A program made the position numbers and the translations under genes. A stretch of 64,000 nt of DNA from contig DASWMP010000322.1 of the NCBI GenBank assembly GCA_036399695.1, forward strand, positions 8,997 to 72,996. Reading direction: 5' to 3'. Below are positions 6,976 to 56,945 of this stretch, in pieces. The notes under the pieces are model-generated. The model saw only the letters and a list, made by a program, of their open reading frames with translations, was not told the DNA's origin and made no database searches. This DNA is from Thermoanaerobaculia bacterium. GTDB taxonomy: Bacteria > Acidobacteriota > Thermoanaerobaculia > Gp7-AA8. Numbering within the stretch: the stretch's first letter is position 1; every line of letters begins with the position of its first letter.

Positions 6976-7082
6976 AGTTGTTGGTTGTTGGTTGTTGGTT
7001 TTTGGTGGGGCTGAGGACCTGCGCGGTTGTTGGTACCGCCCAGGGCGGCGGCACCAACAACCAAAAACCAACAACCAACAAC
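6976..7082. repeat. R3 MITE-like palindrome (TTGGTTGTTGG arms).
   Basis: gttgttggttgttggttgttggtttttggtgggg pairs with ccaccaacaaccaaaaaccaacaaccaacaac. Other copies sit at 36958 and 50921. Confidence 0.8.
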
Positions 7083-7705: not shown

Positions 7706-8709
7706 TACTTCCCTTCCTTTCGTTGCTGCGGTTTTTTCCGCGAAGCGGCGGCACTCATGACCGGCGGTTCGGTGCCTCGGTACCCGGCGCGCACCCTGAC
7801 GGATTGCACGCGCCCCGCAAGCTTCAGGGTGATGCGGCGGTACTTGACGGCGCCTTTTCCCGTCGGCGAAAAGCCGATGAGGTACTGCGCGCGGAGCTCT
7901 TGTTCGATGCCATCGAGGGCTTTGCCGAGCTGCGCCGGCCGGTTGCCGACGTAGAGCTTCCCTCCTGTGAGCGTCGCCAGATCGCCGAGCAGGGCAAGGT
8001 CCGACGACGACTCTGAAGTCTTCGTTTCTTTCGTGAATTCGCCCGGCTCACGGAGGCCGACGGCGTAGATCGGCACCGCCACGCCTTCGAGCAGTCGCGC
8101 GATCTGCGGGCGGGTGAGCTGCGAGTTGTTGTCGATGCCGTCGCTCAGCAGGACGATGGCACGCGTCGGATTCGTCCCGAGCTGGCTGCGCTCCGGGATG
8201 TCGGCCACGGCGTCGAAGAAGGCCGTCTTGCCGTATGGTTCGAGCTTGTCCATGGCCACCAGGATCGGGGCCGGGTCTGTGGTGAAGGGGACGATCTCGC
8301 GTGCCTGCCCTTCAGCGAAGACGTACAGGCTGAAGTCGTCCCCAGTCTTGCGGCGGGAGATGAGCGTCGTGACGGCCGCACGCGCGGCCTCGAGCTTGCC
8401 GGCGAGCCCCATCGAGCCGGAGCCGTCGACGAGGAGCGTCCAGGAGACGGGGGCGTTCATCGACTTCTCGAACATGTCGCTCGGGACGGGCCGGCCGTCG
8501 ATCATCAGCGACACTTCTTTGGCGTCGAGGTTGGTGATGGGAACGCCGCGGGAGCCGAGCACCGTGAAGGGGATCATCACGTAGCTGACGGACAGCTCCT
8601 CGGTCACCTGGGCGGTGACGCCGGCTGCGACGAGCAGGAGAAAGAGCGTAAACCTGGCTGCCCGTCTCATGCGCGATGTCAACAAATAACTTCGTCCGCG
8701 CGATTTCAC
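7705..8709 (-). CDS. von Willebrand factor A domain protein. An alternative start is Met 8670.
   Basis: MIDAS motif DGSGSM in a vWA fold, preceded by a signal peptide. The stop overlaps the start of the OmpA-like gene. Confidence 0.8.
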   Translation of the reverse strand: MKSRGRSYLLTSRMRRAARFTLFLLLVAAGVTAQVTEELSVSYVMIPFTVLGSRGVPITNLDAKEVSLMIDGRPVPSDMFEKSMNAPVSWTLLVDGSGSMGLAGKLEAARAAVTTLISRRKTGDDFSLYVFAEGQAREIVPFTTDPAPILVAMDKLEPYGKTAFFDAVADIPERSQLGTNPTRAIVLLSDGIDNNSQLTRPQIARLLEGVAVPIYAVGLREPGEFTKETKTSESSSDLALLGDLATLTGGKLYVGNRPAQLGKALDGIEQELRAQYLIGFSPTGKGAVKYRRITLKLAGRVQSVRVRAGYRGTEPPVMSAAASRKKPQQRKEGK

Positions 8710-12884: not shown

Positions 12885-12970
12885 AGTTGGCGGTTGGCAG
12901 TTGGCAGTGGAGTACCAAAATCGCGGAGCCATTTCCACTGCCAACCGCCAACTGCCAACCGCCAACTGTC
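12885..12970. repeat. R2 palindromic element (TTGGCGGTTGGCAGTTGGC arms).
   Basis: Inverted arms between two convergent genes. Other copies sit at 28401, 34731 and 43713. Confidence 0.85.
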
Positions 12971-14604: not shown

Positions 14605-14650
14605 GATGGGACCAATGGGACCTATAGGACGCATGGGACCTATAGGACGG
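14605..14650. repeat. R6 tandem 9-mer repeat.
   Basis: atgggaccaatgggacctataggacgcatgggacctataggacgg. Confidence 0.8.
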
Positions 14651-21621: not shown

Positions 21622-22266
21622 ATGAAGTTGGCAATCCCGGTAGTTCTTCTCTCTCTTCTCGCGGTCGCGCCCGCGTTCGGACAGAGCCGCGCGTTCGATC
21701 TGACGGGCAACGTCGTGTGGGTCGACCCCAGCAGCGAAGGGACGTTCGACGATTTCGACGGTGACGCCGCCGACATCGAGTTCGACGGCACGATGGGCTA
21801 CGGCCTCGCGGCGAACATTTTCTGGGGCGATCGCATCTCGACCGAGCTCGCAATCTCGCGCGTCGACACCGAAGCCACGGTGCGGCGCCGCGCTGTCGGC
21901 AATGCCGGCGCTGATCTCGAGATGATGCCCATCACGGCCGTGCTGCAGTTCCATTTCATCCCGAACGGGAGGATCGATCCGTATGTCGGCGTCGGCGCCG
22001 CGTACGTGCTGTTCGACGACCTCGAGGATCCGGACGATCTCGACGACATCGACTTCGAGCGCATCGAGCTGCAGGACGATGTCGGCCTGGCGCTGAACGC
22101 CGGCCTGGGCATCCGCATCACGCCGCGCCTCGGCATCACGCTCGACGCCAAGTACGTGCCGCTGGAGTCCTCGGCCCGCGCCGTGTTCGTGACCGGCCCG
22201 GACACCGAGACCACGGTGGACATCAACCCCGTGATCTTCTCGGCAGGACTCACGCTGCGGTTCTAG
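21622..22266 (+). CDS. OmpW-like outer-membrane beta-barrel protein with an acidic loop insert.
   Basis: GGAGG lies 5 nt before ATG 21622. Signal peptide AVAPAFGQ and a C-terminal Phe. It is a paralogue of the gene at 5534..6181. Confidence 0.7.
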   Translation: MKLAIPVVLLSLLAVAPAFGQSRAFDLTGNVVWVDPSSEGTFDDFDGDAADIEFDGTMGYGLAANIFWGDRISTELAISRVDTEATVRRRAVGNAGADLEMMPITAVLQFHFIPNGRIDPYVGVGAAYVLFDDLEDPDDLDDIDFERIELQDDVGLALNAGLGIRITPRLGITLDAKYVPLESSARAVFVTGPDTETTVDINPVIFSAGLTLRF

Positions 22267-22282
22267 TTTTTGCGGAGAACGA

Positions 22283-22368
22283 CGGGACCTATGGGACAGA
22301 TGGGACCAATGGGACAGATGAGAGTCTCATTGGTCCTCTCGGTCCCATAGGTCTCATCTGTCCCGACA
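22283..22368. repeat. R6 9-mer element in a palindromic (hairpin) arrangement.
   Basis: Direct 9-mers (gggacctatgggacagatgggaccaatgggacagatg) are followed by their reverse complement. Confidence 0.8.
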
Positions 22369-22935
22369 GACGTGCCAGACTTCAGTCTGAGGCCGTCACA
22401 CCTAAGTTCGAGGTCGCGGAACTTCTGTTTGAGGCCGCCGCATCTCTGTTTGAGGCCGCCGCATCTCAGTTTTGAGGTCGCCGCATCTCAGTTTTGAGGC
22501 CGCCGCATCTCAGTTTGAGGCCGCCGCATCTCAGTTTGAGACCGCCGCACCTCAGTTTTGAGGACGCCGCATCTCAGTTTGAGGCCGCCGCACCTCAGTT
22601 TTGAGGACGCCGCACCTCAGTTCGAGGCCGCCGCACCTCAGTTTTGAGGCCGCCGCATCTCAGTTTGAGGCCGCCGCACCTCAGCTTCGAGGTCGCCGCA
22701 CCTCAATTTGACGCCACCGAACTTCAGTTTCGAGGCCGCCGCACCCCAGTTTTGAGGTCGCCGCGCCGCAATTTAAGGCCGCCCCAGCTCAGTTTGAGGC
22801 CGCCTCATCTCGATTTGAGGCCGCCGCACCTCAGCTTCGAGATCGCCGCGCCTCAGTTTCGAGGGCGCCGCGCCTCAATTTCAGGTCGCCGCACCTCAAT
22901 TCGAGGTCGTCGCACCTTGTTTTGACATCGCTGAA
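22363..22935. repeat. Tandem array of about 27 contiguous 21/22-bp units (GAGGCCGCCGCATCTCAGTTT[T]). It is not a CRISPR.
   Basis: Units abut with no spacers and degenerate toward the right end. Each unit contains the short palindrome TGAG...CTCA. Confidence 0.9.
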
Positions 22936-23117
22936 CTCAGCTTGGCCGCAGACGGTCCGGTGCCCACGGAGGCGTTGCCGCCGCTCGCGAACGAGCGAAG
23001 TGATGCGGCGCCGTGTAGCGGGGTCATCGGGGCGGGCCGCCCGAAAGATGTTCCACCGCACCTTGACACCCGGCGGTCGGCGACCTATCTTTGTCGCCAG
23101 GAGGCTGAGACGGTTAA

Positions 23118-23792
23118 ATGACGAACGACGAGCGGGCGCCCAAGAGCGCCACGACAGCATGCCGGGAACGGCGCCACCCGCAGAGCGGGCAGGCGGCCGG
23201 TCCGGCATGGGTGCGTCCGCTTCGCCGGGCGCAGCGTGCGCTCGACCGGTCGGCTCGTCTGATGGCTTCCGGTGTGACGGTGGCCGCGCGCTCGGAGCGT
23301 GCGGCCCAGTGGCGGCCGATCCGCAGCTCGCAGAACCTCGAGCATGCCGAGACCCGTCTGTCGATGGCCGCTTCCCGTCTGGGCCAGGTGGCCAAGGAAC
23401 TGGCCGAGATCACGGCCTGCCTCGAGCGCGAGCCCGAAACCGGCGCAGGTGCGCCGGAGCAGTTCATGGCCATCATGCAGCGCTGGATGGTCATGAGCCT
23501 CTCGCTCGGTCAGGTCTCGTCGACCGTCTTCGCGCTGCATGAAAACATGCTCGCCGGGCTGGCCTCGGGCGAGCTGGTGGCCGAGCGCGTCCCGGGCAGC
23601 CCGCTCCGGATCCTCCTGACGCCGCGTCCCGCTCCCATTCGTGTCTCGCTCTCGGTCCGGCTGAGCCGGGCCGCCGACCGCATTTCCATCGCGCTCAAAC
23701 GACGGCGAAGGGCGAACCGCCCGGCAGCCGTCAGCGTTCCACGTCGCGCCTCTCAGGGGCGCGCGCCTCCGCTTTCGCTCTGCCTGCTCTGA
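23118..23792 (+). CDS. Hypothetical protein (orphan).
   Basis: High GC3 in this frame and no recognisable domain. The start is uncertain. Confidence 0.4.
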   Translation: MTNDERAPKSATTACRERRHPQSGQAAGPAWVRPLRRAQRALDRSARLMASGVTVAARSERAAQWRPIRSSQNLEHAETRLSMAASRLGQVAKELAEITACLEREPETGAGAPEQFMAIMQRWMVMSLSLGQVSSTVFALHENMLAGLASGELVAERVPGSPLRILLTPRPAPIRVSLSVRLSRAADRISIALKRRRRANRPAAVSVPRRASQGRAPPLSLCLL

Positions 23793-23831
23793 TCCATCCA
23801 TTGCAGTCTGCGAAAAATTAGGAGGCTCTCA

Positions 23832-24395
23832 ATGAGCGCTAACAATAAAGCTGTGTCCGCGGTTGAGCTCGACCCGGTTGCCATCAACTACAGACAAGAG
23901 GCGCAGGTGCGCATGCAGGAAATTCGTCTCTTCCGCGACTCGCTTCCCCACTTCACCATCCCGGAGACCCGCGAATCCAAGAGACGTCTGAGCCCGGCCG
24001 CCTCGATCCCGTCGGAGTTCGTCGAATTGGTCACGGTGGCGCTGGCTAATCAGAAAGGCCTGGCGCGCGTCGATGGCGCGAGCCCGGCCGAGGTCTTTGA
24101 CCTGGTCAGCTATGCGGACGCTTTCGCGCCGTTGGCGGACGAACTGGAGGCACTGGCGCAGTTCGTCCGTTACAGCGTCACGGTGGCGCGGAACAAGGCG
24201 GGAAGCGAGTCGCTGACGACCTACGCGGTCGCGCAGCGTCTGGCGAAACGGCCGGAGAACGGCCATCTGGTGCCGTACGTCGACGACATGCGCCGTGCCC
24301 TTGGCCGGGTGCGGAAGGCTTCGGCGGAGAAGGTCGAGCCCAAGCCGGCGCCGAAGGCCACGAGCGAACCGCCGGCATCGCAGCAGCAGCCGTAA
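23832..24395 (+). CDS. Hypothetical protein (orphan), 187 aa.
   Basis: AGGAGG lies 6 nt upstream of the ATG. The C-terminus is Pro/Ala/Lys-rich. A hairpin plus T-tract terminator lies downstream. Confidence 0.55.
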   Translation: MSANNKAVSAVELDPVAINYRQEAQVRMQEIRLFRDSLPHFTIPETRESKRRLSPAASIPSEFVELVTVALANQKGLARVDGASPAEVFDLVSYADAFAPLADELEALAQFVRYSVTVARNKAGSESLTTYAVAQRLAKRPENGHLVPYVDDMRRALGRVRKASAEKVEPKPAPKATSEPPASQQQP

Positions 24396-24417
24396 CGACT
24401 GAAGTGCAGTAGATGAA

Positions 24418-24452
24418 GGCGGGCGCGTCCGCAAGGGCGCGCCCGCCTTTTG
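24418..24452 (+). terminator. Intrinsic terminator (GC hairpin followed by TTTTG).
   Basis: ggcgggcgcg...cgcgcccgcc followed by ttttg. Confidence 0.5.
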
Positions 24453-24506
24453 CCGGTGCTTGCCGGTACTCCGTCGCGGCTCGTTCCATGAAGGCGCCGA
24501 CGACGC

Positions 24507-25436
24507 TCACGTCGGCGTGTCTGCCGCCGGAAGACCTTCTCCGCGCAAGCGGCTGATGTCTCTCGTCGGCGCGCTTCCGAAGAAGCGGCTGTACTCGCGG
24601 CTGAACTGTGCCGCGCTCATGTAGCCGACGCGGCGGCCTGCAGCTCCCACGTCCGTCGTTGCCGTCAGCATCAGCCGCCTGGCCTCCTGCAGCCGAAGCG
24701 TTTTCTGGTATTGCAGAGGGCTCATGCCGGTGACGGCCTTGAATTGCCGATGAAACGACGTGACGCTCATGTTCACCAGCTTCGCCAGCTCGCCGATGTC
24801 CGCGGGCTGGTCGAAATTCGTCCGCAGCCATGACACCGCGTTGGCGATGCGTTGCATGCTCGATCCGGCTTGCCCGATCTGCGCAACGCGACTCCCCATC
24901 GGACTGCGAAGCAGCCGGATCAGAATCTCATCCAGCACGAGCGGCGCGAGGAGCTCGGCGTCGACCGGCTGCTCGATCAGCTCGACCAATCGCGCTGCCG
25001 CATCGATGATGTGCGCATCGGCGTCGCCGACGTAGAGCGCGCGGGTCTCTCGCGGTTTCGGCACGCCCTCCGGAAACACTTTCGGCACGAGCCCGGCGAT
25101 CTTCTCCGCATCGAGATCGATCATCAGCACCAGGTACGGCTCGGCGTAACTCGCGCGCGTGACGCGGCCGGCGATCGGAACGTCGACCGAGTACAGCGCC
25201 ATCTGCCCGGCCTCGTAACTGTAGGTGTCTCCGCCGATCATCGCGATCTTCGCGCCCTGCGCGGCGACGCACAACGACGATTGCTGTACGTAGTGCACCG
25301 GCTCCCGATTCGGCCGCGACACTCTGGCTGCATGGACACCGGGCATCGGAAGGTCGACCGTTGCGTCGTTGGGGACGATCGCGCCGATCGACTTGGCCAG
25401 CGCCGCGATGCCAGTAATTTCTCTTGCGCGCATCAT
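24507..25436 (-). CDS. AraC-family transcriptional regulator.
   Basis: C-terminal double HTH (SFHRQFKAVTGMSPLQYQ...AAQFSREYSRFFG). Start taken at the MM codons at 25436. Confidence 0.85.
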   Translation of the reverse strand: MMRAREITGIAALAKSIGAIVPNDATVDLPMPGVHAARVSRPNREPVHYVQQSSLCVAAQGAKIAMIGGDTYSYEAGQMALYSVDVPIAGRVTRASYAEPYLVLMIDLDAEKIAGLVPKVFPEGVPKPRETRALYVGDADAHIIDAAARLVELIEQPVDAELLAPLVLDEILIRLLRSPMGSRVAQIGQAGSSMQRIANAVSWLRTNFDQPADIGELAKLVNMSVTSFHRQFKAVTGMSPLQYQKTLRLQEARRLMLTATTDVGAAGRRVGYMSAAQFSREYSRFFGSAPTRDISRLRGEGLPAADTPT

Positions 25437-28396: not shown

Positions 28397-28400
28397 CGTA

Positions 28401-28500
28401 GTTGGCGGTTGGCAGTTGGCGGTTGGCAGTAAAGATTGGCGGTAGGTATGTGGCGCCGGCGGGTTCTCCTGCCTACCGCCAACTGCCTGCCGCCAACTGC
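28401..28500. repeat. R2 palindromic element.
   Basis: gttggcggttggcagttggcggttggcag ... ctaccgccaactgcctgccgccaactgc. Confidence 0.85.
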
Positions 28501-31412: not shown

Positions 31413-31515
31413 GAAGTCAGAACGCAGAACGCAGAACGCAGAACGTTGAATGAGGAGCTGAGCCGTCGTTAGAGTTCTGCATTCTGCGTTCTGCGTTCCG
31501 CGTTCTGACTTCGGG
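31413..31515. repeat. R5 palindromic element (CAGAACGCAGAACGCAGAAC arms).
   Basis: A second copy sits at 62637-62721. Confidence 0.8.
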
Positions 31516-31529
31516 TTTCTGTGCTCCCA

Positions 31530-34703: not shown

Positions 34704-34730
34704 CCCGCGCCGAAGTGTACCAGCGGAGGC

Positions 34731-34830
34731 AGTTGGCGGTTGGCAGTTGGCGGTTGGCAGTGGACAAAGCAAGGAACCGGTGCTCGGCCGGTGCCGGCGC
34801 CTCATCCACAGCCAACCGCCAACTGCCAAC
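34731..34830. repeat. R2 palindromic element in a divergent intergenic region.
   Basis: agttggcggttggcagttggcggttggcag ... cagccaaccgccaactgccaac. Confidence 0.85.
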
Positions 34831-36951: not shown

Positions 36952-36957
36952 GGGCAG

Positions 36958-37062
36958 TTGTCGGTTTTTGGTTGTTGGTTTTTGGTGGGCTCCGCTGTTC
37001 GGTGGGATCCGCCGGTTTCCGCCGCGGGTCACACCAAAAACCGAAAACCAAACCCCAAAAAC
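36958..37062. repeat. R3 MITE-like palindrome.
   Basis: ggtttttggttgttggtttttggtggg ... cacaccaaaaaccgaaaaccaaaccccaaaaacc. Confidence 0.8.
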
Positions 37063-37073
37063 CGCCCCGCGCG

Positions 37074-40089: not shown

Positions 40090-42308
40090 GCGGCGACGGC
40101 GACAGCCGTTAGAAAGCCGATCAACACGCCGACCCGGAAGCTCCAGGGCGCGTAATCCACCACCACCTCCCGGCTCCCGGCCGGCACGTCGAAGCCCACG
40201 AACGCGCCGTCCACTTTCACCACGTCAAAGCCCTTCGCGCGCCAGCCGGGGTAGAAGGGGATGCTGCTGACGATACGCGCCGGTTTCGAGGCGTCGATGC
40301 GGAGGCGGTAGCGGGTGCCGCGCTTGGCGATGATGCGCACGTTCGCGTCATCGGAGAAGAACCGCGGTTTGGCGGTGGCGTTTTCGTAGATGCGGCCGTC
40401 GGGGCCGTCGTAGAGGAGGCGGTGTTTCGGCAGGTCGCGGGCCGGTTCGGTGAGGATCCAGCGGACGTTGAGGCGGTCGAGCGCGGGCGAATCGGGCTCA
40501 TTCCACTTGGCGAAGTACTCCTTCGTTTCGTACGACGAATGGGCGCGCAGCCAGGCGATGGCGGCGGCGCTGGCCATCGGGTCGTGCTGGCGGAGGTCGT
40601 CGACGCCGAAGAGGACGTGCGCGTTCGGGAACAGCACCGGCCCGAGGCCGACGACGCGATACGGGCCGGGAGCCTCGTCCACGAGCTTCTGCAGCGCGCC
40701 CGTCATGAGCGTGCCGGGATAAGCCTCGGACGCCGGGACGACGGGGTTCCAGTCGCGCATGGCGAACCAGAGCTCGAAGAGCATGGCCGCGATGAGAAAC
40801 ACCGGGAAGACGGTCTGCTTCTGATGTGGGACAGACACTCTTGTCTGTCCGCCGATCAAAGCCACGAGCAGCACGACGCCGCTCGGCACCAGCACGCGCA
40901 CATCCATCGGCGGCACCTGCAGCACGACGAACGCCCCGACCGCCGCCGCGAACAGCACACCGACGCCGCTGCCCAAGCGGCTCCGGTAATGCAGCAGGGC
41001 GGCGATCTGCATCGCCCCGAAGAAGCAGAACAGCAGCCGCAGGCGCGGGTTCATGATGGCGCCGACGATGCCGGCATACGGCGGCTCTCCCGGCGCCGAG
41101 CCGTTGAGAAACGCGAACGTGACGGCCATGGCCACGACGAAGAACAGCTCCACGGAACGCCAGGCCCGGCGGCGGATGACGTCCACGAGCACCCCGGCCC
41201 AGGCGGCGATGGCCAGCACGCCGGCGAAGCCGCCGAGCGTCTCCGCCGGCATCCCCAGCCCTCGCCCGAAGTAGCGCGGATGAAGCATCGGCGCGAGCGA
41301 GCGGAGATCGGAGTACGGCATGCCGAGGTACGCGTGCCCCTGCAACTCGGCGAAGCGATGCGAGCGTGTGGCGGCTTCGTAGAAAGGGAGCAGCAGCGGC
41401 GCCGCGAGCAGCGCCGCGCCGATCATTGCGAGGAGGATCGACGCAACGAACCGCCCGCGCTGAAGATCAGGAACCGTGATGATCAGCCACAGCGCGTACG
41501 CGCCCGCGCCGAGTGCGATGAGCGTGAGGCTTTCCGGGTGACCGCCAAAGGCGATCAGCGCGCCGAGGATGGCGCTCAGGGCGATGGCCTTGCGGCGGGA
41601 GCCGCCCCCCGCCACCGAATCGACTGCCAGCAGCACCACCGGCAGCCAGCACACCGTGCTGGCAATGGCGAAGTGCAGCCACACGACCACGAACGAGCAG
41701 AACCCGAACGCCACCGCGCCGGCCACGCTCGGCAGCTCCCCGTACCCGCGGCGACGGCAGAACAGATACATCCCCGTCAACGCCACGAGCAGCTTCATCG
41801 CGGCTTCGGCGGCGATGGACGGCCCGAGGGGCAGCGGCAGCGCGAGCAGCCGGAACGGCGAGAGCGCGGCACTCTGCGCGTTCGCCAACAGCGGATACCC
41901 GAGCCCGGCGCGCTCGTTCCAGAGCGGCACGTCCAGCGCGCGCCACGACTCCCGCACCTGATGCGCCCACGGCACCGTCTGCATCGGCAGATCGTGGATC
42001 TCGAAGTTCGAAACCCCGAACTTATCCAGCGCCCCATACGCCGACCAGGGCGGCAGCAGCCGGATCACGTCCACCGGATAGTTGACGACGTTCGCCACCA
42101 GCGGACGCCAGAGGAACGCCAGCACCAGCAGGTAGAAGAGGGCGGCGATGCGCCAGGGAACGAGAGGACGTTGTTCGTTGTCCGTTGTCCGTTGTCCGTG
42201 CTCCGCTGCACGATGGTCACGGCGGAGCGCAGCGCGGACAACGGAAAACGAACAACGGGCAACGACGATCCCGTACACCACGAGCACCAGCAGCCACGCG
42301 AGGTTCAT
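40059..42308 (-). CDS. YfhO-family polytopic membrane protein, paralogue 2, carrying two in-frame repeat insertions.
   Basis: Colinear with the gene at 37074..39515. Start taken at MNLAW (42308), which overlaps the tyrA stop (ATGA). The Arg-rich upstream part of the long ORF was ignored. Confidence 0.75.
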   Translation of the reverse strand: MNLAWLLVLVVYGIVVARCSFSVVRAALRRDHRAAEHGQRTTDNEQRPLVPWRIAALFYLLVLAFLWRPLVANVVNYPVDVIRLLPPWSAYGALDKFGVSNFEIHDLPMQTVPWAHQVRESWRALDVPLWNERAGLGYPLLANAQSAALSPFRLLALPLPLGPSIAAEAAMKLLVALTGMYLFCRRRGYGELPSVAGAVAFGFCSFVVVWLHFAIASTVCWLPVVLLAVDSVAGGGSRRKAIALSAILGALIAFGGHPESLTLIALGAGAYALWLIITVPDLQRGRFVASILLAMIGAALLAAPLLLPFYEAATRSHRFAELQGHAYLGMPYSDLRSLAPMLHPRYFGRGLGMPAETLGGFAGVLAIAAWAGVLVDVIRRRAWRSVELFFVVAMAVTFAFLNGSAPGEPPYAGIVGAIMNPRLRLLFCFFGAMQIAALLHYRSRLGSGVGVLFAAAVGAFVVLQVPPMDVRVLVPSGVVLLVALIGGQTRVSVPHQKQTVFPVFLIAAMLFELWFAMRDWNPVVPASEAYPGTLMTGALQKLVDEAPGPYRVVGLGPVLFPNAHVLFGVDDLRQHDPMASAAAIAWLRAHSSYETKEYFAKWNEPDSPALDRLNVRWILTEPARDLPKHRLLYDGPDGRIYENATAKPRFFSDDANVRIIAKRGTRYRLRIDASKPARIVSSIPFYPGWRAKGFDVVKVDGAFVGFDVPAGSREVVVDYAPWSFRVGVLIGFLTAVAVAAQLRARQETV
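40824..40849. repeat. R1 26-bp unit inside the YfhO paralogue 2 coding sequence, in-frame.
   Basis: atgtgggacagacactcttgtctgtc is translated as GQTRVSVPH, a segment absent from paralogue 1. Confidence 0.8.
42165..42262. repeat. R4 palindromic element (CGTTGTCCGTTG arms) inside the N-terminal coding region of YfhO paralogue 2.
   Basis: cgttgttcgttgtccgttgtccgttgtccg ... cggacaacggaaaacgaacaacgggcaacg. The same motif forms the outer arms of the R3 copy at 50921. Confidence 0.75.
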
Positions 42309-43141
42309 AGGGCGTCGTAGAGTTTGCGGGCCTGGTCGTAGGCGGCGACGTCGCCGTCGATGATGGCGCGGACGAGCTTGGCCAGTTCTTCCGCGTGCCG
42401 CGCGAGTTGCTCGCGGTTCGCGGCGACGATCGGGGCCCAGACGCTGCCGTCGCTGCCGGCCAGGCGGAGGAACGTGCGCAGGCCGCTGCCGGCGAACCGG
42501 AGCTGGTCCTCGTCGAGGTAAGCGGCGAGGGCGGTGGAGAGGATCTGCGGCAGATGGCTCGTCAGGGCGACGCCGGCGTCGTGCTCGCGCGCGTCGACGC
42601 GGTCGCGGATCGCGCCGCACGCGTCGATCATCGAGTCGACGAGCGGGTCGTCGGCGTCGACGAACCAGCGGTGGTTCTCGAACAGATCTGCGCGCGCCGC
42701 CGCGAGGCCGCGCTCCTGCGAGCCGGCCATCGGGTGACCGGCGATGAAGCGTGTGGTGGCGGCGTCGCGCAGCGGGGCCATGACGCTGCACACGGAGGTC
42801 ACGGTGGCGGGGGTGCGCAGGGTGCGCAGGATGCGCACCGCGATATCCACCGGGGTGGCCAGGATGATCAGATCCGGTGGGGGACCGGGGGAGACGATGG
42901 GACCAATGGGACCAATAGGACCGATGGGACTAATGCCTTCGGGTGGGCTCCCATTGGTCCCATCTGTCCCATAGGTCCCATCGTCCCTTGTGGACCACCG
43001 CTCATCCGCCGCCTCCGCCCCCCGCGCGGCCTCCGGGCTCACCTGCGGGTCCACGAACGCCACCCGCCAGCCGCTTGCGCGGAGGCGGATGCCGATCGAG
43101 CCGCCGATCAGGCCGAGGCCGGCGATGAGGACGCGGGGCAT
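42305..43141 (-). CDS. tyrA: Prephenate/arogenate dehydrogenase with an in-frame repeat-encoded insert.
   Basis: Rossmann start VLIAGLGLIGGS, the TyrA core, and a 33-aa GT/GPIGPIGPI insert encoded by the R6 repeat. Confidence 0.85.
   Translation of the reverse strand: MPRVLIAGLGLIGGSIGIRLRASGWRVAFVDPQVSPEAARGAEAADERWSTRDDGTYGTDGTNGSPPEGISPIGPIGPIGPIVSPGPPPDLIILATPVDIAVRILRTLRTPATVTSVCSVMAPLRDAATTRFIAGHPMAGSQERGLAAARADLFENHRWFVDADDPLVDSMIDACGAIRDRVDAREHDAGVALTSHLPQILSTALAAYLDEDQLRFAGSGLRTFLRLAGSDGSVWAPIVAANREQLARHAEELAKLVRAIIDGDVAAYDQARKLYDAL
42896..42988. repeat. R6 9-mer palindromic element lying in-frame inside tyrA.
   Basis: gatgggaccaatgggaccaataggaccgatgggac...cccattggtcccatctgtcccataggtccc. 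Confidence 0.8.
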
Positions 43142-43712: not shown

Positions 43713-43788
43713 AGTTGGCGGTTGGCAGTTGGCGGTGGCCTTGACGATGGTTGACTCCCGCCAACTGCCAACCGCCAACTGCCAACAG
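43713..43788. repeat. R2 palindromic element.
   Basis: cagttggcggttggcagttggcgg ... ccgccaactgccaaccgccaactgccaac. Confidence 0.85.
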
Positions 43789-43803
43789 CCTTTGCGGCGC
43801 GGA

Positions 43804-44670: not shown

Positions 44671-44797
44671 CAACCCTGAGCGAAGCGAAGGGTCAATGGA
44701 GCCTCAGCGAGGTGGTCAACCACCGGCGCATTGCATGGCGAGGGTCGTAGCTGAGGCTCCATTGATCCTTCGTCGCTTCGCTCCTCAGGATTAACTC
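44671..44797. repeat. R8 palindromic element.
   Basis: Its right end supplies the TAA stop of deoA. Confidence 0.85.
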
Positions 44798-46104
44798 AAA
44801 TGCTCATGAATCAGCGGCTTCGCCGGCGGCTGGTCGTCGCCGATCTCCACGAATTCGAGGTAGCGGGCGCGGAGCTCGGCGGCGTCGCGGCCGGCGCGGC
44901 CTAACTGGATGCGGGCGATGGTCTCGCCGGCTTTGACTTCGTCGCCGGTGCGGCGGTCGAACATGACGCCGGCGGCGTAGTCGATCTCGTCGTCCGCTTT
45001 CTTGCGGCCGGCGCCGAGGTCCACCGTGAACATGCCAGCTTTGTAGGTATCCATCTTCGTGATGAAGCCGCTGCGGGGAGCTTTGACTTCGATCGTTTCG
45101 GTTGGCTGCGCGAGGAGGGAGTAATCGTCGATGACGTTCGCGTCGCCGCCCTGCGCGGTGATCCACTTGCGGGTCTGCTCGAGGGCGCGGCCGGAGGTGA
45201 GGGCGTCGTCCAGCTCCTTGCGGGCGCTGGCCGTGTCGAAGCGGCCCGACATCACCAGGATGCGCTCGGCCTGGGCTCGCGTGACCTCGAGGACGTCCTC
45301 CGGGCCTTTGCCTTTCAGCACTTCGATCGTCTCGACGATCTCGTTGGCGTTGCCGGCGGCAATACCGAGAGGCCGGTCCATGTCCGTGATGATCGCCTCG
45401 ACCTTCGTCCCCGAGCCGGCGGCCGCGGCGATGAGGCTCTGCGCGAGGGCTTTCGAATCCTGGTAGAGGCGCATGAAAGCGCCGCTGCCCGTCTTCACGT
45501 CGAGGATCAGGGCGGAGGCTCCCATGGCCAGCTTCTTCGACATGATCGAGGCGGTGATCAGCGGGAGCGATTCGACCGTGCCGGTGACGTCGCGCAGCGC
45601 GTAGATCTTCCGGTCGGCGGGGGCGATGCCTTCGGTCGACGTGGAGATCACGCAACCGGCGTCGGCGACGCTTTTCTCGAACTCGGCGCGTGAGAGGCGG
45701 GCGTTGAAGCGTGGGATGGCTTCGAGCTTGTCGAGCGTCCCGCCTGTGTGGCCAAGGCCGCGGCCCGAGAGCATGCCGATGCGGATGCCGCAGGCGGCCA
45801 CCCAGGGGGAGAGGATCAGCGAAACCTTGTCGCCGACGCCGCCGGTGGAGTGCTTGTCGGCGATGAACTCGTACGTGTTGCGCAGGTGCCACTGCTCGCC
45901 GGAGCGGAGCATGGCCTGCGTCAGGGTGGCCATCTCCTCCGAGGTCATGCCGTTGATGGCGATGGCCATCAGGAGGGCGCTCATCTGGTAGTCGGGGATG
46001 TCGCCGCGGGTGTAGCCCTCGACGAAGAACTCCAGCTCGCGGCTCTCGAGCGGCGCGCCGCGACGCTTGCGGTTGAGAAGCTCATAAACGCTGTACGCAG
46101 CCAT
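44791..46104 (-). CDS. deoA: Thymidine (pyrimidine-nucleoside) phosphorylase.
   Basis: DKHSTGGVGDK, TGGTLDKLE and the two-domain glycosyltransferase fold. Confidence 0.9.
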   Translation of the reverse strand: MAAYSVYELLNRKRRGAPLESRELEFFVEGYTRGDIPDYQMSALLMAIAINGMTSEEMATLTQAMLRSGEQWHLRNTYEFIADKHSTGGVGDKVSLILSPWVAACGIRIGMLSGRGLGHTGGTLDKLEAIPRFNARLSRAEFEKSVADAGCVISTSTEGIAPADRKIYALRDVTGTVESLPLITASIMSKKLAMGASALILDVKTGSGAFMRLYQDSKALAQSLIAAAAGSGTKVEAIITDMDRPLGIAAGNANEIVETIEVLKGKGPEDVLEVTRAQAERILVMSGRFDTASARKELDDALTSGRALEQTRKWITAQGGDANVIDDYSLLAQPTETIEVKAPRSGFITKMDTYKAGMFTVDLGAGRKKADDEIDYAAGVMFDRRTGDEVKAGETIARIQLGRAGRDAAELRARYLEFVEIGDDQPPAKPLIHEHLS

Positions 46105-46189: not shown

Positions 46190-46495
46190 AATCGCTCGAC
46201 GAGCACCCGCGATCGGTGGCCCGTCACCAGGAATCAGTCATCGATCACCGGGAATCGGTGGCCGATCGCCGAAAATCGGGCATCGATGACTGATTTCCCA
46301 CGGATCGTGACCGGAATTCAGTCGCGCGTCACCGAAATTCAGTCACGCGTGACCGAAATTCGGTGGCCGGCGTCGGGAAATCGGTCGCTGGCCCCCGAAA
46401 ATCACTCGTCGATCACGGAAAATCAGTCATCGATCACGGAAAATCAGTGATCGATCACCGAAAATCACTCACCACCGGCCACGACCTACCCCAGC
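46190..46495. repeat. Tandem array of about 12 degenerate 21-bp units (consensus CACCGAAAATCAGTCATCGAT) upstream of queC.
   Basis: Units occur head-to-tail in both orientations. The last three are near-identical. Confidence 0.85.
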
Positions 46496-46510: not shown

Positions 46511-47200
46511 ATGAAAGCCGTCATCCTCCTGTCGGGCGGACTCGACTCCGCGACCGTGCTCGCCATCGCCAGAAATCAGGAGCGTGAGTGCCACGCCATG
46601 TCCATCGTCTACGGACAGCGTCACGACGTCGAACTGCACGCCGCGCGTCGCGTTGCCGAGGCCATCGGCGTCTCCTCGCACGTCGTCTTCCCCCTCGACC
46701 TGCGCGTCTTCGGCGCCAGCGCTCTCACGAGTGACCTGGAGGTGCCGAAAGATGCCGTCGGTGCCCCCGGCATCCCCATCACCTACGTCCCGGCTCGCAA
46801 CACGATCTTTCTCTCGCTGGCGCTGGGGTTCGCCGAAGCGCTCGAAGCGCAGGAGATCTGGCTCGGCGTCAACGCCGTCGACTTCAGCGGCTACCCCGAC
46901 TGCCGCCCCGACTTCATCGACGCCTTCCAGCAGGTGATCTTCGAAGGCACCCGCAGCGGCGTCGAGAAGCAGGAGCCCCGCATCGTCGCCCCGCTGCTGT
47001 CGATGACGAAGGCGGACATCATCCGCCGCGGCGTCGAGCTGGGCGTCGATTACGGCCTCACGCACTCCTGCTACGACCCCGGCCCGCACGGCCACGCCTG
47101 CGGCCACTGCGACTCCTGCCTCCTGCGCCGGAAGGGTTTCGAGGAGGCAGGCGTTCCTGACCCGACGGTCTACGGACTGAACAGCCATGCGAATCACTGA
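46511..47200 (+). CDS. queC: 7-cyano-7-deazaguanine synthase.
   Basis: [10 protein letters not shown]-loop and a C-terminal Zn-binding CGHCDSC motif. Confidence 0.95.
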
Positions 47201-50850: not shown

Positions 50851-50920
50851 TTCCCGCGATCAAAATTTGTGGTTTGCATGGAGTGCCGCTCTGAAGGGGG
50901 CGGCACTTTTGTTTGTGGCG

Positions 50921-51087
50921 CGTTGTTCGTTGCCCGTTGCCCGTTGCCCGTGTTTCAGGTTGTTGGTTTTCGGTTGTTGGTTGTTGGTGCTCCGCTCGGT
51001 TTTACCAACAACCAACAACCAACAACCAAAAACCGGCCCCAACGGACAACGGACAACGTGCAACGTGCAACGTGCAACGGACAACGC
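50921..51087. repeat. Composite R3 element with outer R4-type arms (CGTTGCCCGTTG / CAACGGACAACG).
   Basis: cgttgcccgttgcccgtg...ggttgttggttgttgg...ccaacaaccaacaacc...caacggacaacggacaacgtgcaacg. Confidence 0.8.
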
Positions 51088-56121: not shown

Positions 56122-56904
56122 ATGCTCGAGTACCGTCCGCGTCCGTCGTACGTCCGTCTGGCGCTCGTCAGTTTCTCGCAATTCGTGATCGCCACCTGGC
56201 TCGTGGCGCTGGTCATCGGGACGATCGACTCGATCCTGGTGCGCGCGTACGACGGCGGGACAGTGCTGTACGCCGCGCCGTGGGACACGCTGCATCGGGA
56301 GGACGCCGGCATCGCCGCCTGGGTGGCGTACGCCTTCTGCGCGTTTGCGCTCGTGCTGCTCTTATTGTGGTCGAGCGGCCGCACGCTCCGCGGACGCCAC
56401 TTCCATTTCGTGCTGGCACACAGCGTGGCCGTCTTCGGCGCGATCCGCTTCGGCCTCCGCGGCGATCTCGGCGACGACCTCCCGCTCCTCGGCGCGCTCG
56501 GCCTGGCGGTAATCGTGGTGATCCTCGCCGAGTCCCGCTCCCTGGCCCTGCTCGGTAACGTCTACGACCTCGGCTTCGGCGGACGCCTGGCCCTCTGGGC
56601 CGTGCGGATGCTCCCGGTAGGCGCCCTCTTCGCCTGGTTCCACCCCGTGCTCATGGCCGTGCTCCTGGGTGTCACCCTGCTCATGGACCTCCTCCCGGCG
56701 CGCACCCGCTTCGAGCAGGTCACGGAGCCGGAGATGCCGGGGAACACGACGATTTTCGTCGCCGCGGCTCTCATCCTGACGCTTTCAGTGGCGGCATTCG
56801 GCTTCATGGAGGCCCAGGCCGTGGTGGTGCAGGACGGTAAGGCATCACGAGTCCCGGTGGATTTTCTGCGGGAGCGGTTCATCCAGGGAGCGGGGCGCCG
56901 ATAG
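56122..56904 (+). CDS. Hypothetical polytopic membrane protein.
   Basis: 260 aa with 6-7 hydrophobic helices and GC3 bias. Confidence 0.5.
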   Translation: MLEYRPRPSYVRLALVSFSQFVIATWLVALVIGTIDSILVRAYDGGTVLYAAPWDTLHREDAGIAAWVAYAFCAFALVLLLLWSSGRTLRGRHFHFVLAHSVAVFGAIRFGLRGDLGDDLPLLGALGLAVIVVILAESRSLALLGNVYDLGFGGRLALWAVRMLPVGALFAWFHPVLMAVLLGVTLLMDLLPARTRFEQVTEPEMPGNTTIFVAAALILTLSVAAFGFMEAQAVVVQDGKASRVPVDFLRERFIQGAGRR

Positions 56905-56945
56905 GACCCATGGGACGAATGGGACCTATGGGACCTATGGGACTA
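56901..56945. repeat. R6 tandem 9-mer repeat.
   Basis: gataggacccatgggacgaatgggacctatgggacctatgggac. Confidence 0.8.

Follow-up and report, generated by a model that had tools for sequence, protein, structure and literature searches.

A helix-phased tandem-repeat array upstream of an operon for two unannotated proteins in Thermoanaerobaculia

On a 64,000-nucleotide stretch from a Thermoanaerobaculia bacterium (GenBank assembly GCA_036399695.1, contig DASWMP010000322.1, positions 8,997 to 72,996; hereafter the window), an array of abutting 21- and 22-bp units lies upstream of a promoter and of two small genes, here called A and B, whose products fall outside any described family. Arrays of the same helical period were found adjacent to this operon at about 90 of 103 loci, in the same place before the promoter, and their unit sequences are mostly unrelated from one locus to the next. 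Judged from these sequence patterns, there is an even chance that the array is a helix-phased series of candidate protein-binding sites which would form a nucleoprotein platform upstream of the operon. With the same measured confidence, it may be regarded as the cis-acting, upstream part of a lineage-specific Thermoanaerobaculia module composed of the array, a sigma-70-type promoter, usually gene A, then gene B and a terminator. A previous sequence-only reading of the window had seen the two genes as neighbours of the array; this position was confirmed, and their linkage to the array, which that reading had missed, is the main result reported here.

Linkage to gene B and conservation of the period

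The two genes had been described as orphans, a label that does not hold, since gene B has 246 relatives and gene A has 36 homologues (39-62% identity). The relatives of gene B are all unannotated and named only from Thermoanaerobaculia or Acidobacteria metagenome-assembled genomes (MAGs), with several paralogues occurring within a single MAG, and the wider family comprises at least 687 representative clusters at 50% identity (E <= 1e-3). When the gene B alignment was compared with one genome per species of GTDB, 68 loci were obtained from about 25 MAGs, up to seven or more per genome. An array, defined as at least 100 bp with a period of 20-23 or 41-45 bp within 1.5 kb upstream of gene B, was present at 51 of the 59 loci having at least 1.5 kb of upstream sequence, while the remaining 508 kb of locus sequence contained a single such array (binomial P ~2e-120). 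Some of the eight array-less loci (L005, L031 and L051) retain a weak 21- or 42-bp periodicity. In JGI metagenomes, an array precedes gene B at 39 of 44 loci, a set that includes a few duplicate MAG loci, and none was detected in 204 kb of background. Further loci of a distant gene B clade lie beyond the reach of the locus finder, as their alignments are too divergent.

The constant partner of the arrays is gene B rather than gene A, because arrays persist before gene B where gene A is missing, even in a distant homologue. In the first three homologue loci, L003, L005 and L007, a gene of 172-244 aa without a Pfam match is followed by a gene B homologue, and the array lies upstream of the pair (43 bp x 13.5 in L003, 43/44 bp x 7 in L007 and a degenerate 21-bp array in L005, with a different unit sequence each time). 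At other loci, such as L017, L033, L047, L071, L140 and L143, gene A is missing and the array stands directly before gene B; likewise, the distant homologue L076 (profile E = 7e-18), which has no gene A, is preceded by a 43-bp x 4.6 array. The position of the array is kept even where the gene B proteins share no more than 45-60% identity.

The modules are chromosomal and dispersed. Arrays also occur in long-read assemblies with multi-megabase contigs (L018, L037, L053, L064 and L067), including a complete 6.6-Mb chromosome; on OY970284, copies are located at 1.6, 4.4, 4.7 and 4.9 Mb of one chromosome, and 3 to 7 or more dispersed copies are found per genome. Their neighbours are ordinary, non-conserved chromosomal (housekeeping) genes, and no plasmid, phage or viral relatives were found in PLSDB, INPHARED and IMG/VR (72,556 plasmids and 50,697 phages). 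A full-text literature search found no description of the arrays or of the A and B proteins.

What is conserved among the arrays is the period. Across 97 distinct arrays (median length 310 bp, range 85-751 bp), the best autocorrelation lag was 21 bp in 35, 22 bp in 15, 41 bp in four, 42 bp in 19, 43 bp in 21 and 44 bp in three, with no other values. The similarity between unit sequences fades as the proteins diverge, and it can be lost even between close paralogues: the gene A proteins of the window and of L003 are 97% identical, whereas their arrays are unrelated (unit similarity of 0.41, equal to background). At the nucleotide level, positions 23158-23857 of the window and 5320-6020 of L003, which comprise gene A together with the initial codons of gene B, share 96-100% identity; over the remainder of gene B identity drops to 70-90%, and before the -35 box, at which the homology exactly begins, it is no higher than background. 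From the alignment, this looks like a gene conversion or duplication that took place recently and involved the promoter and gene A only. As nearly identical gene A proteins are paired with unrelated arrays, gene A was rejected as a sequence-specific reader of its own array.

Besides the period, a small set of palindromic features recurs. On average, the longest perfect dyad arm of a unit measures 5.14, compared with 3.88 +/- 0.09 in shuffles. Among 90 non-redundant units, the core ATCGAT is present in 30 (0.5 expected) and the core TCA-N3/4-TGA in 20 (1.2 expected), while the reversed arrangement TGA-N3/4-TCA and a spacing of N2 are found in none, and spacings of N5 and N6 in one unit each. 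In units of 41-44 bp, the distance between palindrome centres is 10 bp in 10 cases, where 1.1 would be expected, and 21-22 bp in 13, where 0.3 would be expected.

Anatomy of the array and the operon in the window

The description of about 27 contiguous units without spacers was accurate: the array consists of 25 clear units flanked on either side by a degenerate one (at about 22368-22388 and 22924-22944, as judged from the sequence), all of 21 or 22 bp (Table 1). Tandem Repeats Finder reported one single array at 22388-22917 with a period of 43 bp (21 + 22), 12.4 copies, 81% matches and a score of 606, and cutting against the consensus GAGGCCGCCGCATCTCAGTTT gave 25 units at 22389-22923 whose start-to-start spacing is 21 or 22 bp only. 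With three mismatches or fewer to the consensus, 19 copies were counted, all within 22431-22881 (0 expected from 100 shuffles), and there was no copy in the rest of the window. The exact unit pattern had no match in GTDB representative genomes or in the scanned JGI contigs, a scan that cannot have included L002, which carries the unit. Unit identity peaks in units 3-13; the decay toward the 3' end that had been claimed is real in that it extends farther on this gene-proximal side, although the 5' end is decayed too. The dyad TGAGG...CCTCA is present within units, as had been noticed, and a further dyad, CCTCA-GTT-TGAGG, spans the unit junctions; the latter belongs to the TCA-N3/4-TGA class and is the one held in common with other arrays.

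Table 1. Coordinates of the array, the operon and the adjoining inverted repeat in the window
Feature	Position	Strand	Remarks
Inverted repeat, arms of tandem 9-mers (ATGGGACNN)	22281..22365	.	Boundary element outside the module; directly after the OmpW-like gene, abuts the left edge of the array
Whole tandem array	22368..22944	.	Higher-order period 43 bp; consensus GAGGCCGCCGCA(T/C)CTCAGTTT(T)
Copy-number-variable core	22581..22666	.	L001 lacks these four units (21 in total); L002 has two extra units here (27 in total)
Sigma-70-like promoter, TTGACA-17-TATCTT	23063..23091	+	Between array and gene A; ~120-145 bp past the array, 27 bp before the start of gene A
Gene A, 224 aa, pI 11.8	23118..23792	+	GC3 0.82; 36 homologues
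AGGAGG ribosome-binding site of gene B	23820..23825	+	6 nt before ATG, read from the sequence
Gene B, 187 aa	23832..24395	+	All-helical, with a disordered Ala/Lys/Pro/Arg-rich tail
Terminator-like hairpin followed by TTTT	24416..24451	+	15-nt arms, 93% complementary, 4-nt loop; closes the operon

The array is non-coding, since the mixed 21/22-bp spacing disrupts all reading frames and GC is flat over the codon positions. The sole open reading frame inside it (22644-22925) has codon-position GC of 0.62/0.59/0.66, in contrast to third-position GC (GC3) of 0.81-0.87 in gene A, gene B and the OmpW-like gene upstream, and GC is 0.62-0.68 over the region around the array. A coding tandem repeat was accordingly ruled out, and periods of 22, 41, 43 or 44 bp characterise 43 of the 97 arrays of the family. 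A clustered regularly interspaced short palindromic repeat (CRISPR) locus was ruled out as well: regularly spaced short repeats with a small palindrome are a shared trait, whereas the units here abut, with a spacing equal to the unit length, and there are neither spacers nor cas genes among the neighbours. As the unit occurs in the window only inside the array, it does not behave as a dispersed repeat of the repetitive extragenic palindrome (REP), bacterial interspersed mosaic element (BIME) or miniature inverted-repeat transposable element (MITE) kind. No Rfam covariance model matched anywhere in the window at gathering thresholds, and the window contains no tRNA.

The number of units varies between close relatives, a check that the sequence-only reading had proposed. 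The exact gene B protein is also encoded on the metagenome contigs ENA k141_157316 and JGI Ga0334956_000155, whose flanks are 99.3-99.8% identical to the window and whose arrays have 21 and 27 units compared with 25 here, all three counts being taken from short-read assemblies, in which repeats can collapse or expand. In a unit-by-unit comparison, the differences amount to whole 43-bp steps and are limited to the uniform core of the array (Table 1). Copy number also differs among related arrays of other genomes. Neither an invariant unit count nor a conserved coding region, which together would have pointed to a coding repeat, was thus found among relatives, where counts vary and the arrays are non-coding. 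Several short-read contigs (L004, L025, L054, L057, L060, L090, L093 and L105) end 40-200 bp upstream of gene B or within the array; since contigs end at arrays, assemblies are often interrupted by the modules, and genomes probably contain more of them than have been counted.

Within 22200-24600, no promoter-like site other than the sigma-70-like promoter occurs (0.1 expected), and of 49 related loci 24 have an exact TTGAC[AG] in the corresponding position, compared with 0 of 49 control windows. As a rule, 42-60 bp separate the -35 box from the start codon, so that leaders should be very short; the distance from the array end to the -35 box has a median of 93 bp across loci. At L021, L032, L038, L063 and others, the -35 box is only 42-44 bp before the start codon of gene A, at which distance the A-B mRNAs would be leaderless or nearly so. 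Downstream, the perfect AGGAGG before gene B and the terminator after it had both been predicted and were recovered; a strict terminator scan missed the hairpin because its T-run comprises only four T.

Neither protein has a significant match in Pfam, NCBIfam, PHROGs, PADLOC or PDB sequence profiles. Its GC3 of 0.82 and its homologues nevertheless mark gene A as a genuine gene. The AlphaFold model of gene A has a mean predicted local distance difference test (pLDDT) score of 78.8 and contains an antiparallel three-helix bundle at residues 31-150 with pLDDT above 95; this bundle is flanked by low-confidence Arg-rich segments, with the motif WVRPxRRAQRALD at the N-terminus and a conserved Arg/Pro-rich C-terminal third (RRPRIxLAPRP...RRRRTPRPAAVxVPRRxxQGRAPPLS). 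A Foldseek search of this fold against PDB returned generic helical bundles only (E >= 0.04). The gene B model has a pLDDT of 71 and matches no PDB fold; its family has a median isoelectric point (pI) of 9.6, and its alignment (A1) a mean column identity of 61%. The distant gene B homologues at L076 (189-602) and L078 (65-514), both without gene A, adjoin a divergently transcribed HTH_3 (XRE-type) regulator gene and have a CA-rich leader before gene B.

The leader of gene A shows little sign of folding (z=-1.2), and RNAalifold predicted no pairs over 37 gene A 5' regions, the alignment (A3) being poor. Short palindromes were observed within the first ~30 codons of gene A (23140-23215 in the window) at about 40 loci, namely GGCGCC-N4-GGCGCC and CCGGCA-NN-TGCCGG in one clade and CGCGA-AAAAG-TCGCG in another. 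As the encoded amino acids differ between the clades, the palindromes could reflect an operator or RNA hairpin superimposed on the codons.

The candidate binding platform and competing explanations

The fixed period, the recurrent cores, the phased dyad centres and the constant position before the promoter point to binding sites on the same DNA face, which in turn suggests cooperative binding. A dyad-symmetric site would be present in every unit of 21/22 bp and in either half of a unit of 41-44 bp; with site centres one or two helical turns apart, all sites would face the same side, and a dimeric or oligomerising protein could bind them cooperatively and thereby assemble into a nucleoprotein platform that would extend over approximately -100 to -700, counted from the operon start. 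Such a platform might regulate the A-B promoter or serve a structural purpose at the locus. The most likely binder is the basic protein B, possibly together with protein A; B would be the most economical candidate because the linkage of the arrays to its gene is nearly exclusive, and a host factor recognising the ATCGAT or TCA-N3-4-TGA cores would fit equally well. The array itself would evolve by unequal exchange or slippage, by which units are homogenised, copy number changes between close strains, and sequences drift or are replaced between loci, while selection would keep the period and the dyad cores; the uniform core, decayed edges, 43-bp-step copy changes and sequence turnover might all follow from such concerted evolution. 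Of the three readings that had been put forward for the array, namely an iteron set, a binding-site array and a minisatellite, the second appears to be the best supported, in view of the helical phasing, the dyads, the palindromic cores and the fixed place before the promoter.

A bolder version is possible and is put forward tentatively, being more doubtful than the platform as such. The array and protein B could constitute a chromatin element in which a satellite is combined with its reader: B, joined by A at loci that have it, would polymerise on any DNA with a two-turn repeat and a loose dyad core, and the array would be selected for its period, not for its sequence. Each copy might then be a discrete nucleoprotein body, acting as a structural anchor or as a heritable switch tunable by copy number, and unrelated by descent to Par, Rep and known nucleoid proteins. 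By analogy only, eukaryotic centromeric satellites are alike in that their period is conserved and plausibly set by the footprint of the binder, while the sequence turns over by concerted evolution; they differ in scale (~171 bp compared with 21 bp), in organism and in proteins.

Several observations weigh against the platform reading. In over half of the units both shared cores are absent, and there is no recognisable DNA-binding fold in protein A, a generic three-helix bundle, or in protein B, a helical protein modelled with moderate confidence and without a structural neighbour. Protein A cannot give locus-specific recognition, because it is near-identical in the window and in L003, where the arrays are unrelated. 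The arrays end ~50-200 bp before the -35 box, farther than typical autoregulatory operators. A second array at 46212-46471 of the window lies between housekeeping genes and has no A-B pair, which means that arrays are not strictly tied to the module. In addition, the difference of 21, 25 and 27 units rests on assemblies of a type prone to repeat collapse or expansion.

The alternative that survives best, although we regard it as unlikely, is a neutral hypermutable minisatellite without a function of its own, which would arise where the upstream DNA is prone to tandem duplication, for instance through strong transcription, a replication-slippage hotspot or an activity of A or B itself. The term minisatellite aptly describes how the array behaves: the units fall in the 10-100 bp range of variable-number tandem repeats (VNTRs), and their count varies between close relatives, subject to the short-read caveat. 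The decay of the end units is as unequal exchange predicts, the complete sequence turnover between paralogues with 97% identical gene A would also be expected, and unusual short tandem repeats abound in this genome. Similarly, bacterial VNTRs or minisatellites such as the mycobacterial interspersed repetitive units (MIRUs) and the intergenic tandem repeats of Borg elements share the intergenic location, the strain-variable copy number and the homogenisation of units within an array; they have, however, neither a fixed period across loci nor a fixed gene partner, whereas here all 97 arrays have a period of 21, 22 or 41-44 bp and one gene family stands beside them. Neutral slippage leaves this constancy of period unexplained, as it does the 17- to 60-fold excess of ATCGAT and TCA-N3/4-TGA in unrelated arrays, the helical phasing of the dyad centres, and the fact that the array has kept its place before gene B proteins of only 45-60% identity and in the distant clade.

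It is distinctly unlikely that DNA structure alone accounts for the arrays, which as curved, cruciform-prone or otherwise unusual DNA would serve as an upstream activator, an insulator or a general target of nucleoid proteins, with no dedicated binder encoded nearby. A period of two helical turns suits this explanation, as do the lower GC of the arrays (57% compared with 65% in the flanks), the single short A/T tract held by many units, palindromes that could extrude as cruciforms, the freedom of the unit sequence to change and the occurrence of the array at 46212-46471 away from any A-B pair. However, several arrays, such as those of L008, L022 and L053, have no A/T tract at all, the fixed spacing and orientation of TCA-N3/4-TGA point to recognition of sequence and not of shape only, and the near-exclusive linkage to gene B would remain unexplained.

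An action of the array as RNA is improbable. In that case, the transcribed array would form a string of 21-22-nt hairpins that are bound or processed, for instance by the Arg-rich protein A, whose pI of 11.8 and Arg-rich tails resemble many RNA-binding peptides. The unit dyads would indeed form hairpins, pyrimidines are slightly but significantly over-represented on the gene strand (C>G in 38 of 58 arrays, p=0.001), and the folding of 270 nt of the array, with z=-2.6, speaks for an RNA role as well. The conserved promoter, on the other hand, lies downstream of the array and thereby places it outside the A-B transcript; hairpins would need neither the two- or four-turn period nor the 10-bp spacing of dyad centres, and the core motifs are palindromic with a weak orientation bias. 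A repeat RNA with a defined fold was rejected, as 270 nt of the array fold with a z of only -2.6 and the centroid is not stable (-18 kcal/mol compared with -107 kcal/mol for the minimum-energy fold), and there is no Rfam match.

Finally, despite the formal likeness to R6K-type 22-bp iterons and to the sopC of F and the adjoining pair of small basic proteins, with distant gene B homologues beside divergent XRE-type repressor genes, it is highly improbable that the array serves an integrated or extrachromosomal element as its origin iterons or its partition centromere, with A and B as cognate binders, because the module and the genes called around four loci include no Rep, ParA, ParM or TubZ-like gene, no DnaA box (TTATNCACA-like site) occurs within 22000-24500, the copies are dispersed over the chromosome among housekeeping genes, plasmid and phage relatives are absent, and the module of the window has no terminal repeats.

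The comparison with these plasmid systems is instructive nonetheless, as a phased array beside its partner genes is a known general kind. Replication iterons, such as the seven 22-bp repeats of the R6K gamma ori and P1 incA, are tandem direct units of ~17-22 bp in helix phase, and the 21-22-bp, two-turn units of the window conform to this; the arrays here are unlike them in having up to ~30 units, in lacking a Rep gene, DnaA boxes and an AT-rich unwinding element, and in being numerous on one chromosome with sequences not conserved between copies. Rep initiators belong to a winged-helix family, of which neither the three-helix bundle of A nor the unmatched helical protein B shows a trace, and the earlier suggestion of a replication iteron lacks support. 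The partition centromere arrays of plasmids (R1 parC, pSK41 parC, F sopC and pBtoxis tubC) are bound cooperatively by small adaptor proteins, and they resemble the present arrays as helix-phased tandem direct repeats with a small dyad, located beside an operon for small basic proteins, before or around its promoter. The numbers of sopC, with twelve 43-bp repeats, come close to the 12.4 x 43 bp of the window. In partition systems the operon encodes the binder of the array, while for the adjacent A-B operon this binder is a candidate only; moreover, the partition NTPase and a ribbon-helix-helix or helix-turn-helix adaptor fold are missing here, and in place of one array per replicon on a plasmid, a prophage or an origin-proximal chromosomal site, the arrays are chromosomal, present in several dispersed copies, specific in repeat sequence to each locus and without a plasmid relative.

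What is new, accordingly, are the proteins, the chromosomal multi-copy state and the conservation of a period without conservation of sequence. The module differs from plasmid replication and partition arrays in being conserved across a class of abundant soil Acidobacteriota, and the combination of a strict two- or four-turn period with free sequence, together with concerted evolution and copy change visible between strains, is unusual for bacteria. The binding-platform reading offers a testable handle on how proteins read periodic DNA rather than sequence, and on the roles of the many unannotated basic proteins of uncultured soil bacteria. If array length tunes expression, the module would be a new type of contingency locus; if the arrays nucleate structures, it would be a new kind of nucleoid organiser.

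Neighbouring genes and other repeats of the window

The setting of the array was as originally described. The gene upstream encodes an OmpW domain (PF03922, E=2e-24), and the hairpin at the left edge of the array corresponds to an inverted repeat with arms at 22283-22323 and 22325-22365 (41 nt, 76% complementary), whose 9-mer family recurs at 14606-14649, 42893-42985 and 56904-56943.

Around the module of the window, neither terminal direct nor terminal inverted repeats were found. Two loci with an orthologue of the neighbouring AraC gene (83-88% identity) have neither A and B nor any array; since far-side synteny is not kept in these two loci, no precise insertion site is definable by an empty-site comparison.

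The second array of the window, at 46212-46471, contains ~12 units of 21 bp of three unit types (e.g., CGTGACCGAAATTCAGTCACG and GAAAATCACTCATCGATCACG) and is located between a deoA-like gene (44791-46104, minus strand) and a divergent queC-like gene (46511-47200, plus strand). Its unit types recur in the degenerate array before the A-B paralogue on L005, a contig that shares its metagenome sample of origin with L002, the near-identical contig. At L037, a 21-bp x 21 array (7993-8441, unit CCCGCCGGGGCCAAGTTGAGT) was observed 3.5 kb downstream of the gene B homologue, at the edge of the fetched locus.

In addition, the window carries more than 12 long hairpins whose arms are themselves tandem 7-mers (e.g., GTTGTTG x4 facing CAACAAC x4) or 9-mers (ATGGGACNN), among them those at 6977-7082, 12885-12967, 28400-28500, 31413-31519, 34728-34830, 36957-37063, 42169-42264, 43714-43790 and 50909-51086. 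Their arms are 23-47 nt long and 77-100% complementary, and the repeat sequence is specific to each site while the architecture is constant. These repeat-armed hairpins may be terminators or REP-like elements of unusual build.

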